Virus record (IMG/VR): IMGVR_UViG_3300043105_000117
Location: 15,418-79,417 of that record
Strand: one strand, 5' to 3'
DNA length: 64,000 bases
DNA from: a virus
Lineage: Duplodnaviria > Caudoviricetes
Shown: in pieces, positions 59,215-63,345 of the stretch
How the letters are laid out: every line of letters begins with the position of its first letter
Position numbering within the stretch: the stretch's first letter is position 1
Made by a program: the position numbers and the translations under genes
Notes under the pieces: model-generated
Told to the model about the DNA's origin: nothing
The model's input: only the letters and a program-made list of their open reading frames with translations
The model's database searches: none

Positions 59215-62200
59215 TCAATCAAAGAGCGTCTTTTGCATTGACTGCAACTCCGCTTTCTTAATATTCTTTACAGCCACATCGAAGTAGCTGTCCTTCAGCT
59301 CGCAACCGATACCGCGACGGTTATTCTTTACAGCCTCATAAACCTCAGAGCCGATACCGAGGAACGGAGTGAAAACAACCTCGCCCTCATTACTCCATAA
59401 ATTCACAAGTCGGTTAATGACCTCCAACTGCAACGGGCAGTTCTTTACGATGCAGCCCTCTGCCGTATATGAGTGGTCGTCTGCAACCTCTATATTGTAG
59501 ACATCGACGTTCTCTGCCGGAACCACATTCTTGACGGGCTTCCATGACTCGCCATCGCCAACCTTAGAGAAACAGTAATGCGGTGACAGTACTGCCTCCC
59601 ATTCCTGAGAACAATGTATCTCGCGACCGCGTATTTCTTTTGTGCGTTCTCCGCGACCTGCGTATAAAGATACTTCCTTGCCGTAAACCCTCTGCATTGG
59701 TATTGCCATACCGAGAATGAGTGCGCGTGATGCAGACGTGAACATAATCTTTCCGCTTTCAAGAAAACACCCGTCTCCTGATAGATAACCATCAGTGAAA
59801 GACTTGGCAAGTTCCTTATTCAGCGACATAGCCTCATACGGAACCACTTTATTCTTCGCACCCTTACCACAACGTGACAGTACATCGCGTGCCTCTTTGC
59901 TAAGATTGATAAGACCTACTTGGTAGCAATTGCAATCATCCGTATGGTCTGCAATGGCCCCGACATATCCGTCTGCCTTTTCAACAAACTCATCAAACTT
60001 TCGCTTGCCGACTGAGATGAAGTACTGATGTCCTCTTACGTCGATATGACCGTCAGCAATCCATCTGCCGATAATCCACCACTCCTTTGCAGAAATACTG
60101 CTCTCCACGACTGGTGGCAATATGAGATTCACATAACAACCCCTCAAATCCTGAGCTTCTATCCACTCTGACTTATCGGATGGCTCTCTGTGAGTAACCT
60201 CACGGGCACGACGCGCATATATCTTATGGTCTGGGGTGCAGATAAGGTTAGGTACGCCCTGAGCTACTACTTTAACAACTTCCGCATTCTCCTTTGTAAG
60301 AGCCTTTGCAACGATGGGCTTCCATACTCCCGTATGCGTGATAGTCTCATCGCCAATCTCTACATCCTCAATAGGAATATAACCTCTTTTGGTAAGTACC
60401 AAAGAACCTTTTGCAAGGCAGATATGTTTCTCGTCGCCCATTTGAGTGCCCTCCGAAGCGGTCAGAACATCGGTTCTTTTAATATCCATCCACACCGGAC
60501 TTGCCCACTTCTGCCATGTTTCAAGCGGGAAGTTGTCGCGGTTAAGGTTGGTGATAGGTTCCCAATCAGCCTCATCGCCCTCCCATTTCTTGAAAATGGT
60601 GATGTACTCGGCCATTCCTATGCCCGTCTTTGAAGAATCGGAAGTGACCTGTTTGTAGAGCAGTCTCTGTGTCTTTGTGCGCTGCATTTCAAGTACGGGG
60701 TCAGTCCATATCGTAACCTTTGAGTGCAGCTTGAAGCCCTCTTGAAGAACCGCTCTTGTATGCTCTCCCGTGAAGTCATACATACCCGTGTAACCTGACG
60801 AGTTCTTATATACACCGAGGTCTTTAGTGTGGCAGCACATCAGACGACCCGGCTTCAATATGCGATACAGCTCTTTCAGCAGGAACGCATATTGCTCAAA
60901 AAACTCCTCGTGGGACTCGTTATTGCCCATATCGTGTATGTAGTTGGAGTAAGTGAAGAGCGAACTGAAAGGCGGTGAGAAGATGATAAGGTCTACCGAG
61001 TTGTCCGGTATGCGCTTAATCTCTATTGTGGTATCACCTTTCATAAGGAAAACCTTGTCGTCCTTATACTCCTTGTACTCATAGTCGTTGAGCAGTCCGT
61101 AAGTGTGCTCATTTACGTTGCGGTTAATCTCCCGCTGCATTTCCTCAAATGCCTTTTGTTTCTTTTCTACGATTGTCTTAGCGTTAGCCATAGTGTCTGC
61201 AACAATTAAGTGAATATTTACATCCTCATTTCTTCCGAAGCGGTAAGAACGTCTTACCTGCTGATAGAAGTCCTCAAAAGAGAAGTCTGGCGCAACGAAA
61301 ATCTGCAAGCCGCACTTCTGAAAGTTCATACCAAAACCGCAAATCTTAGCCTTTGAGATAAGTATTCGGATTTTGCCGTCGGCAAAGTCGAGAAGTCTCT
61401 GTTCCTTAACCTCATCCTTATCACTGCCTCGCACCTCAACAGCTTCGGGAATCAGCTTACGCAGTCGGTCGCCCTCTTCATTCTGCTTAATCCAGATAAG
61501 AATCTGCTCATCGGGGTGCTCATTTACGATGTCAACGCAAGTCTGCAATCGTAAATCCATAGTGTTGCGAAGTTCTTGATTGAAGTTGGTAGCGTTCACG
61601 ATACCGCTTGCAAAGAGAAGTCCGTCTTTAGGCTTCGAGTTAACCTCGTGTTGCACGTAGTTAAGTGTCGGGAGGATATATTTCTCTCCGCTCTCCTTGA
61701 ACCCGATGTCGGCAGGGTTCTCAAACATGATGGCCCATGAAGCAATCCAACCATAAAAGTCTTTTGCCGCGTGACCTTTAAGACGGTAGTTGTTCATACC
61801 CTCCTCGCGCACGAACCATTTGGAGCGCATATCCTGCGCATCGAGCACATCGAGAAACTCCGAGTGGTTGCCAAGCTCGTTGAGGTCATTCGGTGACGGT
61901 GTTGCCGTACAGCATAACTTGTATGGAGTCTTGGCGAACTTGTCAATGAGTAATCTTTTGTAATGACCAGTAAAATTCTTCAAAAGAGAGCTATTGTGAA
62001 CTAATGCTCCGTTGATGGTAAAACTTGGATGTTGTTTGATGCTAAGGTCAACGAAATATAGCTGTCCTTCGGCATCCCGGTATTTATCCAATCTAATATC
62101 ATCTTGTTTGAGAATCTCAAAACTTTCCACCCTAAAGAAGTTAGCATCGCATCCTTCTTCGCATCCTGTTCCTTGCGAGAGTTGTGGCTGAATCCATCCA

Positions 62201-63345
62201 CTTCTATCGCTATCATCTCTTCGCAATTCGCTAAATCGACTTTGTAGCAAGTCGGATAGCCCTTCTTTCGCTTCCCCAGTGATATAGCATATTCCGCTAC
62301 CCATTTCTCTGACAAGACATCCTTTAGCAACCGCTGTGGCAATGTCATTCCGGTCCCATTTCCCCCACGCACTAAAGGTTTCCAATGCATTTCCTTTAGT
62401 TTCTTTGATATTTTCTCTCTCACTTCCAGAGATGATGTTGGGTTCAAATTGGTAATCATTTCCATGTGGGCTTTCGCTACTGGGTCGTCCGAGTGAAGCC
62501 ATGCCGAGATTTTCTTCCCTGTTTTCGCATGAACCTCCTTCGAGTGAACTTTCTCCTTTATTTCCGCTTGCGACATTCTCCACTTCGCTGAACAAGATGT
62601 CCCGCAAAATCTCTTCTTTAAGTCCGTTTTCCACTTCGGGTAGAAAGTCGCCCCGCACCACTCGCATCGCATAGGAAGTCTTTGCGATTCTGTCAGTAGG
62701 GCGTATTTGCTTCGCTGCGACCCACCCTCTTTGCGTGAAGAAGGGGTGTCTGGGTGAACAGATAATTTCTCTTCCATTGTATTTGAGTTTAACTGCATAT
62801 TTTACATTCTTCCGTTTAACTGATGTTATCACATCATCTCCAAAACAGTTAGTGACAATATCTCCAACCTTGCAATCGGAGATTGGTATAGAGATGGACT
62901 CTCCGTTTCTTTTTACTGTAATCTCCGTGTCGGGCGCAAAGCACTCATCGAGAACAACACCGACAAATTTGTCAATGTCTATATTCTCTATCTGTTCATA
63001 GTTGGTAATAGCAATCTGTGTTGCATCATCCATATCTTTGTATCGGACTACCTTATAGCCGAACTTTGCACCCTCCTGAATAGTCTGTCTGCTGACGGAC
63101 AGCGGAGCGAGAATTAGTACGGGCTTGCCCGTATGGTTTGCCACCTGCTGCGCCCATTCGAGTTGCATATTGGTCTTACCCAGACCGCATGAGGCGAAAA
63201 TCGCACCCTTACCCATCTTGCACATTCTTCTTACACAATACTGCTGGAAGTCGAAAAGCTGTGGGTTGATGTTTACAGGTTCAAAACCTGTCTCTTCCCG
63301 GTGGTAACGCTTTCGCTCCAATACATCTTCGTATGTCTTTGTCAT
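59215..63345 (-). CDS. SNF2-like helicase / N4C-N6A DNA methyltransferase fusion with two inteins
   Basis: CGLGKT, DE|SS, TATP, QVRRSYRFG helicase motifs; SPPF, TPFLGIGS methyltransferase motifs. Confidence 0.9.
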   Translation of the reverse strand: MTKTYEDVLERKRYHREETGFEPVNINPQLFDFQQYCVRRMCKMGKGAIFASCGLGKTNMQLEWAQQVANHTGKPVLILAPLSVSRQTIQEGAKFGYKVVRYKDMDDATQIAITNYEQIENIDIDKFVGVVLDECFAPDTEITVKRNGESISIPISDCKVGDIVTNCFGDDVITSVKRKNVKYAVKLKYNGREIICSPRHPFFTQRGWVAAKQIRPTDRIAKTSYAMRVVRGDFLPEVENGLKEEILRDILFSEVENVASGNKGESSLEGGSCENREENLGMASLGRPSSESPHGNDYQFEPNIISGSERENIKETKGNALETFSAWGKWDRNDIATAVAKGCLVREMGSGICYITGEAKEGLSDLLQSRFSELRRDDSDRSGWIQPQLSQGTGCEEGCDANFFRVESFEILKQDDIRLDKYRDAEGQLYFVDLSIKQHPSFTINGALVHNSSLLKNFTGHYKRLLIDKFAKTPYKLCCTATPSPNDLNELGNHSEFLDVLDAQDMRSKWFVREEGMNNYRLKGHAAKDFYGWIASWAIMFENPADIGFKESGEKYILPTLNYVQHEVNSKPKDGLLFASGIVNATNFNQELRNTMDLRLQTCVDIVNEHPDEQILIWIKQNEEGDRLRKLIPEAVEVRGSDKDEVKEQRLLDFADGKIRILISKAKICGFGMNFQKCGLQIFVAPDFSFEDFYQQVRRSYRFGRNEDVNIHLIVADTMANAKTIVEKKQKAFEEMQREINRNVNEHTYGLLNDYEYKEYKDDKVFLMKGDTTIEIKRIPDNSVDLIIFSPPFSSLFTYSNYIHDMGNNESHEEFFEQYAFLLKELYRILKPGRLMCCHTKDLGVYKNSSGYTGMYDFTGEHTRAVLQEGFKLHSKVTIWTDPVLEMQRTKTQRLLYKQVTSDSSKTGIGMAEYITIFKKWEGDEADWEPITNLNRDNFPLETWQKWASPVWMDIKRTDVLTASEGTQMGDEKHICLAKGSLVLTKRGYIPIEDVEIGDETITHTGVWKPIVAKALTKENAEVVKVVAQGVPNLICTPDHKIYARRAREVTHREPSDKSEWIEAQDLRGCYVNLILPPVVESSISAKEWWIIGRWIADGHIDVRGHQYFISVGKRKFDEFVEKADGYVGAIADHTDDCNCYQVGLINLSKEARDVLSRCGKGAKNKVVPYEAMSLNKELAKSFTDGYLSGDGCFLESGKIMFTSASRALILGMAIPMQRVYGKEVSLYAGRGERTKEIRGREIHCSQEWEAVLSPHYCFSKVGDGESWKPVKNVVPAENVDVYNIEVADDHSYTAEGCIVKNCPLQLEVINRLVNLWSNEGEVVFTPFLGIGSEVYEAVKNNRRGIGCELKDSYFDVAVKNIKKAELQSMQKTLFD
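59440..60420 (-). mobile_element. intein 2 (327 aa) with in-frame LAGLIDADG endonuclease
   Basis: HI|CLAKGS...TPDH...IIGRWIADG...DGYLSGDG...YNIEV...IVKN|CPLQ. Confidence 0.92.
61993..62943 (-). mobile_element. intein 1 (317 aa) in helicase Walker B
   Basis: DE|CFAPDT...SPRHPF...VDLSI...LVHN|SSLL; no in-frame endonuclease motif. Confidence 0.92.
62001..62798 (-). CDS. Zn-finger + Vsr/DUF559-like endonuclease, nested out of frame in intein 1
   Basis: CEWC...FCGTSC; YKVDLA...IAIEVDGFSH...DAKKDAMLTSLGWKVLRF; frame offset 1 nt from host gene. Confidence 0.85.
   Translation of the reverse strand: MQLNSNTMEEKLSVHPDTPSSRKEGGSQRSKYALLTESQRLPMRCEWCGATFYPKWKTDLKKRFCGTSCSAKWRMSQAEIKEKVHSKEVHAKTGKKISAWLHSDDPVAKAHMEMITNLNPTSSLEVREKISKKLKEMHWKPLVRGGNGTGMTLPQRLLKDVLSEKWVAEYAISLGKRKKGYPTCYKVDLANCEEMIAIEVDGFSHNSRKEQDAKKDAMLTSLGWKVLRFSNKMILDWINTGMPKDSYISLTLASNNIQVLPSTEH

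Follow-up and report, generated by a model that had tools for sequence, protein, structure and literature searches.

What does an intein encode when its central part can be read without a stop codon in two frames at once? This question is raised by a helicase gene of a tailed phage (IMG/VR record IMGVR_UViG_3300043105_000117), located in the window, the whole stretch of 64,000 nucleotides analyzed here. We consider it highly probable that the first of the two inteins in this gene, intein 1, is a bipartite selfish element laid out in two reading frames and equipped with a separately translated homing endonuclease. The gene and the parts of its intein frame are as follows.

59215..63345, minus strand: host gene ORF, 1376 aa, an SNF2-like helicase fused to an N6/N4 DNA methyltransferase, with two inteins inside
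61993..62943, minus strand: intein 1, 317 aa, directly after the Walker-B (motif II) DE of the helicase
62641..62943, minus strand: N-terminal splicing region, intein residues ~1-101, with block A Cys1 and block B S-P-R-H
62146..62574, minus strand: "linker" in the host frame, intein residues 124-266, a predicted disordered stretch that is the nuclease gene read in frame 0
61993..62145, minus strand: C-terminal splicing region, intein residues 267-317, ending in HPSFTINGALVHN

The host gene matches Pfam families ResIII, Helicase_C, N6_N4_Mtase and Intein_splicing, and PHROGs 16 and 62 (DNA helicase) and 67 (methyltransferase). Its translation reads VVLDE|CFAPDTEI ... GALVHN|SSLLKNF across the insertion; the junctions VVLDE|C and VHN|SS therefore define intein 1 as 61993-62943, in the DE|SS motif of the helicase, exactly where an earlier note on this DNA had placed it. 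The splicing domain scores 37.3 bits against Pfam Intein_splicing (cut-off 35.8) and has the gp41-1 intein (6qaz, E 3e-10) as a relative, and residues C1, H66, H316 and N317 are invariant among 40 homologues. In the AlphaFold model, pLDDT exceeds 90 at residues 1-100 and 267-317 (91-97, with beta strands, in the N-terminal region; 93-95 in the C-terminal one) and falls to 26-33 at residues 124-266. As modelled, the intein frame is a Hint fold broken by about 145 disordered residues, a shorter stretch than the linker of roughly 190 aa described earlier.

Shifted by one nucleotide on the same strand lies a second ORF, starting at nucleotide 548 of the host ORF (offset 1).

62001..62798, minus strand: nested nuclease ORF, 265 aa, ATG at 62798, in the +1 frame within intein 1
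62592..62666, minus strand: four-Cys zinc finger of the nuclease (C45, C48, C65, C69), FCS / treble-clef type
62379..62591, minus strand: basic helical repeats, residues ~70-140, the presumed DNA-binding module
62025..62351, minus strand: Vsr-like / EDxHD catalytic domain, residues ~150-258, with its motif at 62163-62204

The earlier reading of this frame as an intact protein of zinc finger, basic repeats and Vsr/DUF559 nuclease is borne out: the ORF matches Pfam DUF559 (E 3.6e-12; 46.6 bits, cut-off 20.6), has 193 protein homologues and yields an AlphaFold model with pLDDT 85. In the homologue alignment the zinc finger residues C48, C65 and C69 are invariant and C45 nearly so, and 2w0t and 2l8e, both FCS zinc fingers, match the profile (E 0.002-0.003). 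Helices at residues 67-136 are modelled with pLDDT around 90-96, and their K/R-rich motifs recur in the alignment. The EDxHD residues E199, D201, H205 and D212 are invariant. Foldseek E-values are weak by themselves (best 9e-3); the fold is assigned from the Pfam match combined with VIA Z-scores of the catalytic domain, which reach 10.0 to 3hrl (DUF559), 9.9 to 3r3p (I-Bth0305I) and 8.5 to Vsr (1cw0). As had been noticed, the ORF overlaps both splicing regions, with its first ~42 and last ~28 codons; these ends evolve under intein-frame constraint, and the conserved nuclease proper spans about residues 43-237.

Chance is excluded as the source of the doubly open frames. They extend over 798 nt (about 800 by the previous estimate), where the third frame contains 25 stops, and in the rest of the host gene stops of the +1 frame occur at 4.1 per 100 codons. 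In resampling trials the protein of one frame was held fixed, its codons were redrawn synonymously and stops in the other frame were counted. With the nuclease protein fixed, 18.0 +/- 3.4 host-frame stops were obtained with the codon usage of the exteins and 10.3 +/- 2.4 with the gene's own codons; zero, the observed number, came up in 0/3000 resamplings. With the linker protein fixed, 7.5-8.5 stops arose in the +1 frame and zero was never reached. A frame-0 stop over a +1 nuclease requires a codon ending in T followed by a codon starting with AA, AG or GA. In the nested genes, T-ending codons before such codons number 0/7831, against 24.0% in other contexts and 23.5% before the same codons in free-standing relatives. 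Since NNT can always be replaced by synonymous NNC, the intein frame is kept open without cost to the nuclease protein.

The same +1 nesting recurs in 189 of 198 distinct related loci, that is, with zero host-frame stops over the nuclease in 135/143 loci from IMG/VR and metagenomes and 54/55 from genome bins; together with the selection pattern described below, this supports the earlier proposal of a dual-coded selfish element. The nested loci have host ORFs of 540-2090 aa where the contig permits, coding for SNF2, ResIII/DEAH and AAA_30 / RecD-like helicases and the terminase large subunit. Phages MR14, CP-T1 and Vibrio 1.194.O show the nesting too, within CDSs annotated as helicase. Among the 198 loci, none has the nuclease in frame with the host or at another offset.

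Several features of the nested start suggest, if indirectly, that the nuclease may be translated separately. The ATG at 62798 stands in an A-rich context (...GTAAAAT ATG), as stated before. In most loci the zinc finger follows the ATG at a distance of 42-58 codons, and a +1-frame stop precedes the ATG by 0-6 codons, often immediately. Shine-Dalgarno (SD)-like motifs occur before the ATG in 36% of loci against a background of 13%, an about three-fold enrichment. No SD motif precedes the nuclease ATG of the window; genes of this phage mostly lack one and have A/T-rich leaders, and the nuclease ATG is alike. Alternatively, a programmed +1 ribosomal frameshift in the N-terminal splicing region could yield the nuclease as a fusion behind the helicase N-extein and the beginning of the intein. 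Such a fusion would fit the overlap of about 45 codons with the N-terminal region of the intein and a start codon that is not strictly conserved: it falls in two alternative columns across the family, and a few loci (L035, L037) show no ATG in the stretch from the last stop to the zinc finger. We nevertheless regard it as unlikely, for besides the SD enrichment there are free-standing homologues with their own starts (L009, L118, L152, L158, L167), and the stop so close before the ATG in most loci leaves only a short window for frameshifting.

A separately translated nuclease would be expected to act at the intein-free allele.

61963..61992 (first 30 nt of the C-extein) plus 62944-62973, minus strand: presumed homing site, GTTCTCGATGAG|AGCTCT

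The junction agrees with the one given earlier, and cleavage would be expected here. All 79 of the 79 closest helicase relatives (54-89% identity) lack the intein, the gap at the site being 0 nt, and intein-free relatives read unbroken DESS(I/L)LKNF. The nearest intein, at locus L006, is 71% identical and its nuclease 75%, with exteins only 52-53% identical. That intein and nuclease are similarly diverged, and both far closer than the exteins, is as predicted for a single homing unit. This, and the joint inheritance of intein and nuclease in widely differing host genes, each time at the DE site, makes it quite improbable that the nuclease is expressed for another purpose, either as a phage weapon (for marker exclusion or against competitor genomes, which it would cut) or as a repair nuclease that has been domesticated, with the intein as its safe harbour. 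Such roles would suit the free-standing relatives in unrelated contexts, for example the one adjoining SSB at L009, and the wide distribution of DUF559 proteins in bacteria.

Selection appears to follow the same division as the two proteins. Across 49 SNF2-type inteins, intein codons 1-90 and 286-317 vary most at position 3 of the host frame, and codons 91-285 at position 3 of the nuclease frame. In a pairwise test, the inteins of the window and L006 were aligned without gaps over 951 nt and synonymous and replacement codons were counted per frame. In the N part the host frame shows 34 synonymous codons and 17 with a replacement, and the nuclease frame 3 and 47. For the centre the nuclease frame gives 33 and 49 and the host frame 14 and 70, and in the C-terminal splicing region constraint is back in the host frame. 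Judging from these substitution patterns, selection switches frame, from the intein frame at both splicing ends to the nuclease frame in the centre; in this closest pair it is moderate on the nuclease (replacement codons 49/194). One short zone is doubly constrained.

62089..62133, minus strand: nuclease motif LGWKVLRFSN over intein strand RVESFEIL

Nucleotide diversity is lowest here at all three positions (0.16, 0.18, 0.34), amino-acid diversity is low in both frames (0.27, 0.40), and conserved columns occur in both alignments. In the linker, amino-acid diversity is 0.52-0.83 in the host frame and 0.38-0.60 in the nuclease frame, and conserved patches coincide with nuclease motifs; the linker appears to be constrained merely to stay stop-free. 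That it is functional itself, as a splicing regulator or DNA-binding arm, so that both frames would matter over the whole 800 nt, might be suggested by some conserved host-frame columns (L113, L117, E120, L233, Q234) and an AlphaFold helix at residues 107-118. However, these columns lie exactly over the top nuclease motifs RFCGxSCSAKWRM and YKVDL, host-frame diversity exceeds that of the nuclease frame throughout codons 91-285, and with the linker's pLDDT of 26-33 we find this reading very unlikely.

At least 14 nested loci, three of them from genome bins, carry 1-3 nuclease-frame stops, so that the nuclease does decay in some lineages. That the +1 ORF as such is a relic, a formerly in-frame endonuclease shifted by paired indels and decaying unexpressed as a junk insert in a mini-intein, is hardly credible even though the host frame stays open in those at least 14 loci, because the ORF is intact in 124/135 nested IMG/VR and metagenome loci, down to ~35% identity, its frame is under purifying selection with variation concentrated at nuclease third codon positions and invariant catalytic residues, an in-frame version occurs in 0/198 loci, and the intein changed host lineage recently.

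Out-of-frame intein endonucleases are a known kind, described in 2025-2026, so that the earlier judgement "rare rather than unprecedented" was right. Out-of-frame and antisense endonucleases were reported from inteins of actinobacteriophages (Gosselin, Arsenault & Gogarten, bioRxiv 10.1101/2025.01.02.630785), and an endonuclease in a separate overlapping ORF from a cyanobacterial dnaX intein (Phillips, DeSimone & Gogarten, bioRxiv 10.64898/2026.09.14.751524); both preprints cite an earlier non-canonical case (Gorbalenya 1998). Intein 1 shares with these inteins a splicing domain in the extein frame, a disordered but stop-free in-frame centre, a folded endonuclease in another frame of the same DNA, purifying selection that tracks the endonuclease frame, and sporadic distribution. 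In the published cases the endonuclease is of LAGLIDADG type (antisense or at +2), VSR-like (antisense) or EndoVII-like (same strand, frame 3), whereas the one in intein 1, EDxHD/Vsr-like and bearing a zinc finger, is encoded at +1 of the same strand; in the literature we came across no account of an EDxHD family placed at +1 on the same strand. The layout, "rare" in the published papers, is that of 189/198 loci in this family, in several host genes and many phyla.

Three further systems are similar in part. In fractured genes, the two halves of a split intein flank a free-standing endonuclease gene of Vsr-like or GIY-YIG type (Dassa et al. 2009, PMC2677866). They resemble intein 1 in nuclease family, in the placement of the same-strand nuclease gene between N and C splicing parts, in the overlap of that gene's 3' end with the C-terminal intein part, and in their hosts, phage DNA-metabolism genes; the kinship of the splicing domain with the gp41-1 intein is a further point in common. 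Their host frame, however, is closed (a stop after IntN, a spacer of 27-51 nt and a new IntC start), whereas that of intein 1 is open through the nuclease gene, and splicing would thus be in cis. The EDxHD homing endonucleases have their prototype in I-Bth0305I (Taylor et al. 2011, PMC3239194; PDB 3r3p), which has the same Vsr-like catalytic fold, EDxHD residues, phage origin, length of about 265 aa and order of N-terminal DNA-binding region and C-terminal catalytic domain. It resides in a recA group I intron and binds DNA via NUMOD2/HTH motifs; the nested nuclease lies inside an intein coding sequence and carries a four-Cys FCS-like zinc finger and helical repeats instead. The "ShiLan domain", an HNH endonuclease that lies out of frame within a phage DNA methylase (Arsenault et al. 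2025, PMC11855218), is likewise an endonuclease ORF hidden in another frame of an insertion that is stop-free in the host frame. The insertion there lacks a splicing domain and is believed to survive as a tolerated loop, in contrast to the complete intein around the nuclease of intein 1.

We propose that a ribosome reading the helicase through in frame 0 would produce a class-1 intein of Hint fold, in which the ~145 disordered residues occupy the endonuclease slot. By excising itself, this intein would be expected to reconnect DE|SS and so give back helicase motif II. The +1 frame would supply a free-standing EDxHD/Vsr-like homing endonuclease with zinc finger, helical DNA-binding repeats and catalytic domain, most likely translated alone from an internal ATG (62798 or nearby) within the N-terminal splicing region. 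Going by its family and distribution, the nuclease would attack helicase alleles that lack the intein, cutting close to the DE|SS codons, and repair of the cut would copy intein and nuclease in together. The module would be an old one that has moved among several P-loop NTPase genes, with insertion always after the Walker-B DE.

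The open reading frame of 1376 amino acids at the right end of the window holds two inteins, and one of them shares its DNA with an endonuclease gene in another frame. The helicase part of this ORF matches ResIII and Helicase_C of Pfam and PHROG 16 and 62. The features concerned, all on the minus strand, are as follows.

59215-63345, minus strand: host ORF, 1376 aa, SNF2-like helicase with N6/N4 DNA methyltransferase, at the right end of the window
61993-62943, minus strand: intein 1, from Cys135 to Asn451 of the host ORF
62001-62798, minus strand: nuclease ORF with ATG start, 265 aa, one base downstream of the helicase frame, Pfam DUF559
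62089-62133, minus strand: doubly constrained zone, intein codons 271-285, where nuclease LGWKVLRFSN lies over intein strand RVESFEIL
59440-60420, minus strand: intein 2, 327 aa, CLAKGSLV ... CIVKN|C, within the methyltransferase domain of the same gene

Intein 2 is of conventional type: a stretch resembling LAGLIDADG lies in its own frame (Pfam LAGLIDADG_3, E 0.0021, and Hint_2), and there is a further match to PHROG 26446, an intein-bearing reductase. The gene thus combines a canonical with an overprinted intein.

Intein 1 is inserted directly behind the Asp-Glu of Walker-B (motif II), after which the helicase continues as SSLLKNF. Its Cys1, following VVLDE, is invariant in 40 homologues, as are H66 and P67 of block B ((T/S)xxH, here S-P-R-H66) and H316 and N317 of the C-terminus, VHN|SS. 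The pattern DE|C ... N|[S/C/T] is present in 102/102 loci with clean boundaries, and PF14890 (intein splicing) scores 37.3 bits on intein 1 alone, against a cut-off of 35.8. In a model of the helicase frame built with the 40 homologues, residues 1-100 and 267-317 form Hint-fold strands with pLDDT >90; by profile, the nearest solved relatives of this splicing domain are the bacterial intein-like domain BIL 2lwy and the gp41-1 intein 6qaz. Intein 1 is probably splicing-competent, judging by its intact catalytic residues and the purifying selection on its splicing regions. Its in-frame centre yields no domain in Pfam or PHROGs, and residues 124-266 are predicted to be disordered (pLDDT 26-33). 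A canonical intein with a LAGLIDADG or HNH endonuclease in its own frame is thus rejected here, the centre being domain-free and predicted disordered.

The nuclease ORF matches Pfam DUF559 (PF04480) with E 3.6e-12, and its model, based on an alignment of 31 homologues, has a mean pLDDT of 85. It is arranged from the N- to the C-terminus as follows.

Residues 1-25: unstructured in the model
C45, C48, C65, C69: four-Cys zinc finger
About 70 residues between zinc finger and catalytic domain: basic helices
Residues ~150-258: C-terminal catalytic domain

C48, C65 and C69 are invariant and C45 nearly so in the 31 sequences, and the profile of the finger resembles FCS zinc fingers. The catalytic domain superposes (VIA) on the DUF559 protein 3hrl (Z 10.0), on the catalytic domain of I-Bth0305I, 3r3p (Z 9.9, rmsd 2.7 over 88 residues), and on E. 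coli Vsr, 1cw0 (Z 8.5). A Foldseek search against the PDB gave no match at E <= 0.001, the best being I-Bth0305I at 9e-3. E199, D201, H205 and D212, invariant in the 31 sequences, make up the composite EDxHD motif after which the family is called (Taylor et al. 2011, PMC3239194). By catalytic motif and by the fold of its model the protein belongs to this Vsr-like family, and it is predicted to cleave the intein-free allele; such alleles, the candidate targets, exist among relatives.

The earlier note had described an intact 265-aa ORF, shifted by 1 nt and coding for a zinc finger, basic repeats and a Vsr/DUF559-type nuclease, in about 800 nt open in two frames. Both statements hold, the doubly open stretch measuring 798 nt on the same strand, with 25 stops in the third frame. 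The in-frame linker of intein 1 is featureless as claimed, but about 145 rather than about 190 residues long.

An open stretch of this kind is not expected by chance. In the rest of the host gene the +1 frame contains ~4 stops per 100 codons. When the nuclease protein was kept fixed and its codons resampled with extein codon usage, 18.0 +/- 3.4 host-frame stops appeared; permutation of its own synonymous codons gave 10.3 +/- 2.4, and 0/3000 resampling trials were free of host-frame stops. The reverse resampling, with the linker protein fixed, left 7.5-8.5 stops in the +1 frame and never reached zero. Both frames are open over 800 nt because T is avoided at nuclease third positions before codons starting with AA, AG or GA: none of the 81 nuclease codons in this context ends in T in the window, compared with 42/183 in other contexts. 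For all nested genes, i.e. nucleases lying inside an open host frame, the figures are 0/7831 and 24.0%, and free-standing relatives end in T in 23.5% of codons before AA/AG/GA. The other offset would force a TGA each time a Met is followed by K, N, T, I or M; a nuclease has 2.5 such pairs on average, and just 9% of the nucleases are free of them. A single common origin of the nested nucleases would account for the uniform +1 offset equally well.

Selection in the two frames was gauged by position-specific diversity and by counts of synonymous and replacement codons. Among 49 SNF2-type inteins, variation peaks at the host third position over intein codons 1-90 and 286-317 and at the nuclease third position over codons 91-285. 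Over codons 91-285 the nuclease frame has the lower amino-acid diversity (0.27-0.60, compared with 0.40-0.83 for the host frame), and the conserved patches of the linker coincide exactly with conserved nuclease motifs. The closest pair is formed by the window and L006, the locus with the nearest intein, which align without gaps over 951 nt.

Synonymous/replacement codons, window compared with L006
N-terminal splicing part: host frame 34/17, nuclease frame 3/47
Centre: host frame 14/70, nuclease frame 33/49
C-terminal splicing part: host frame 10/5, nuclease frame 2/11

Within the overlap, purifying selection tracks the endonuclease frame, as it should if the suspicion of a second coding frame was right. 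Another outcome considered at the outset, an alternate frame interrupted in most homologues, did not materialize. Interruptions do occur: the nuclease frame of at least 14 nested loci contains 1-3 stops, their host frame being open. These stops were seen at L013, L036, L040, L041, L045/L140, L050, L056, L081, L096, L119, L251 and L260/L261. The combination fits endonuclease decay after fixation, as in the homing cycle.

The same arrangement is widespread. The region has no DNA-level match to GenBank phages by blastn, matches being obtained by protein-level search alone. With tblastn the nuclease was found inside CDSs annotated as "helicase" in Pseudomonas phage MR14, in Vibrio phage CP-T1 and in the Vibrio 1.194.O group. 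In every case it lies +1 to the CDS and in that frame's unique stop-free gap of 740-800 nt. MT104474.1 gp44 (L001), NC_019457.1 gp10 (L002) and MG592563.1 NVP1194O_69 (L003) are annotated only as "putative helicase" or "coil containing protein", and the nested +1 ORF is without annotation in these three records. The protein database contains 193 homologues of the nuclease. From IMG/VR and metagenomes 169 loci were taken, 143 of them distinct; in 135/143 the frame one base upstream of the nuclease is stop-free across the whole match and part of a long ORF, and the third frame at these 135 has 3-34 stops. Species-representative genomes added relatives from many phyla, 54/55 nested likewise, including the isolates Ktedonobacter racemifer and Longilinea arvoryzae. 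Altogether 189/198 related loci are nested in an open intein frame, and none of the 198 distinct loci shows the nuclease in the intein's own frame or at the other offset.

Host genes of the module are SNF2 helicases (DE|SS), ResIII/DEAH-type helicases (DE|CH), an AAA_30 RecD-like helicase and a terminase large subunit. In L034 and L136 (terminase large subunit) and in L132 (AAA_30, RecD-like helicase) intein and nuclease lie behind the Walker-B DE; Terminase_6N matches L034 at 23.6 bits, and no terminase match was obtained for L136. This distribution suggests that the module switches sites between P-loop NTPases via the shared DE motif.

The 79 helicases of IMG/VR that are closest to that of the window (C-exteins 54-89% identical) are all intein-free, with uninterrupted DESS(I/L)LKNF. 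L006 shares 71% identity with the window in the intein, 75% in the nuclease and 80% in DNA, and only 52-53% in the exteins. An intein far closer than its exteins, together with intein-free closest relatives, is expected from horizontal acquisition by homing and not from vertical descent. Five relatives are truly free-standing. One free-standing copy (L024/L110, 3399-4202) begins with ~22 residues resembling the N-terminus of an SNF2 helicase, overlaps a remnant of the C-terminal part of an intein (51% identity) and has no helicase downstream. It looks like a deletion derivative that placed the nuclease on the start of the helicase.

As to how the nuclease is made, most loci have an ATG that precedes the zinc finger by 42-58 codons; it occupies either of two columns of the alignment and often comes immediately after a same-frame stop. 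A motif resembling Shine-Dalgarno (SD) sequences precedes it in 36% of loci versus 13% of background positions, with strong examples in L029, L038 and L042. A fixed start codon or a universal ribosome-binding site is rejected by the two alternative columns and by the limited share of loci with such motifs. In the window itself, SD-like motifs precede 6/60 of the longest ATG ORFs and most leaders are A/T-rich, often ...AAGAGT ATG. This suggests that the phage's host initiates translation independently of SD motifs, in a Bacteroidota-like manner; the leader of the nuclease ATG is of the same kind. ATG placement, SD enrichment and the matching A/T-rich leader therefore make internal initiation the best-supported route by which the nuclease would be translated. 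That a +1 frameshift instead fuses it to the upstream helicase/intein product we consider very improbable.

Endonucleases outside the intein frame are a general phenomenon already published in 2025-2026. Actinophage inteins have LAGLIDADG and VSR-like genes in antisense and EndoVII-like genes in frame 3 of the same strand (10.1101/2025.01.02.630785); also described are a +2 LAGLIDADG in a cyanobacterial dnaX intein (10.64898/2026.09.14.751524), and an out-of-frame HNH in a methylase insertion without intein (PMC11855218). The first two bear out the expectation that such cases are rare rather than unprecedented. Intein 1 shares with these non-canonical inteins the endonuclease ORF lying out of frame over the centre, the open intein frame, and the sporadic distribution with horizontal transfer. 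In the literature on inteins with out-of-frame endonucleases we found no same-strand, +1, EDxHD/zinc-finger nuclease in contiguous helicase or terminase inteins. EDxHD endonucleases of the I-Bth0305I family have a NUMOD-type DNA-binding region at the N-terminus; the window's nuclease has a zinc finger and helical repeats in this part.

It was in "fractured genes", between the halves of split inteins, that Vsr-like endonucleases were first seen; the same paper stated that none was known inside inteins (PMC2677866). In fractured genes the host frame stops behind IntN and starts anew for IntC (Dassa 2009), whereas the host frame is open throughout in the window and 189 related loci; a fractured gene with split intein is rejected for intein 1 on this ground. 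L090 (near 1419) and L126 (near 1370) alone have a single host-frame stop in the linker, their N and C splicing parts still sharing a frame. Recent splitting of the intein, a dead helicase or a sequencing error may each account for this, and both contigs end early.

We tentatively propose that the +1-overprinted family is the contiguous counterpart of fractured genes and that natural split inteins may even have evolved directly from it, or it from them, though we hold this to be rather doubtful. Since the intein frame is open only because certain nuclease third positions avoid T, a single C-to-T change would split the helicase. Such a change, silent in the nuclease, would create a linker stop and leave IntN and IntC halves around an intact nuclease gene. 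Two observations bear on this proposal: the splicing domain is related to gp41-1, and L090 and L126 each carry exactly one such stop. If it is true, overprinting would be the stable ground state of a large and ancient intein lineage and split inteins its one-step derivatives. The family connects contiguous inteins with the fractured-gene split inteins of protein engineering (gp41-1 relatives). Gene callers give the helicase or the nuclease, never both, and overprinted inteins would be mistaken for mini-inteins or decaying inteins. Judged by its sequences, the family would also supply numerous natural endonucleases of EDxHD type whose predicted DNA-binding modules include a zinc finger. A homing endonuclease can persist in the long term as an overlapping gene within an intein, being neither an in-frame domain nor a gene-splitting insert.
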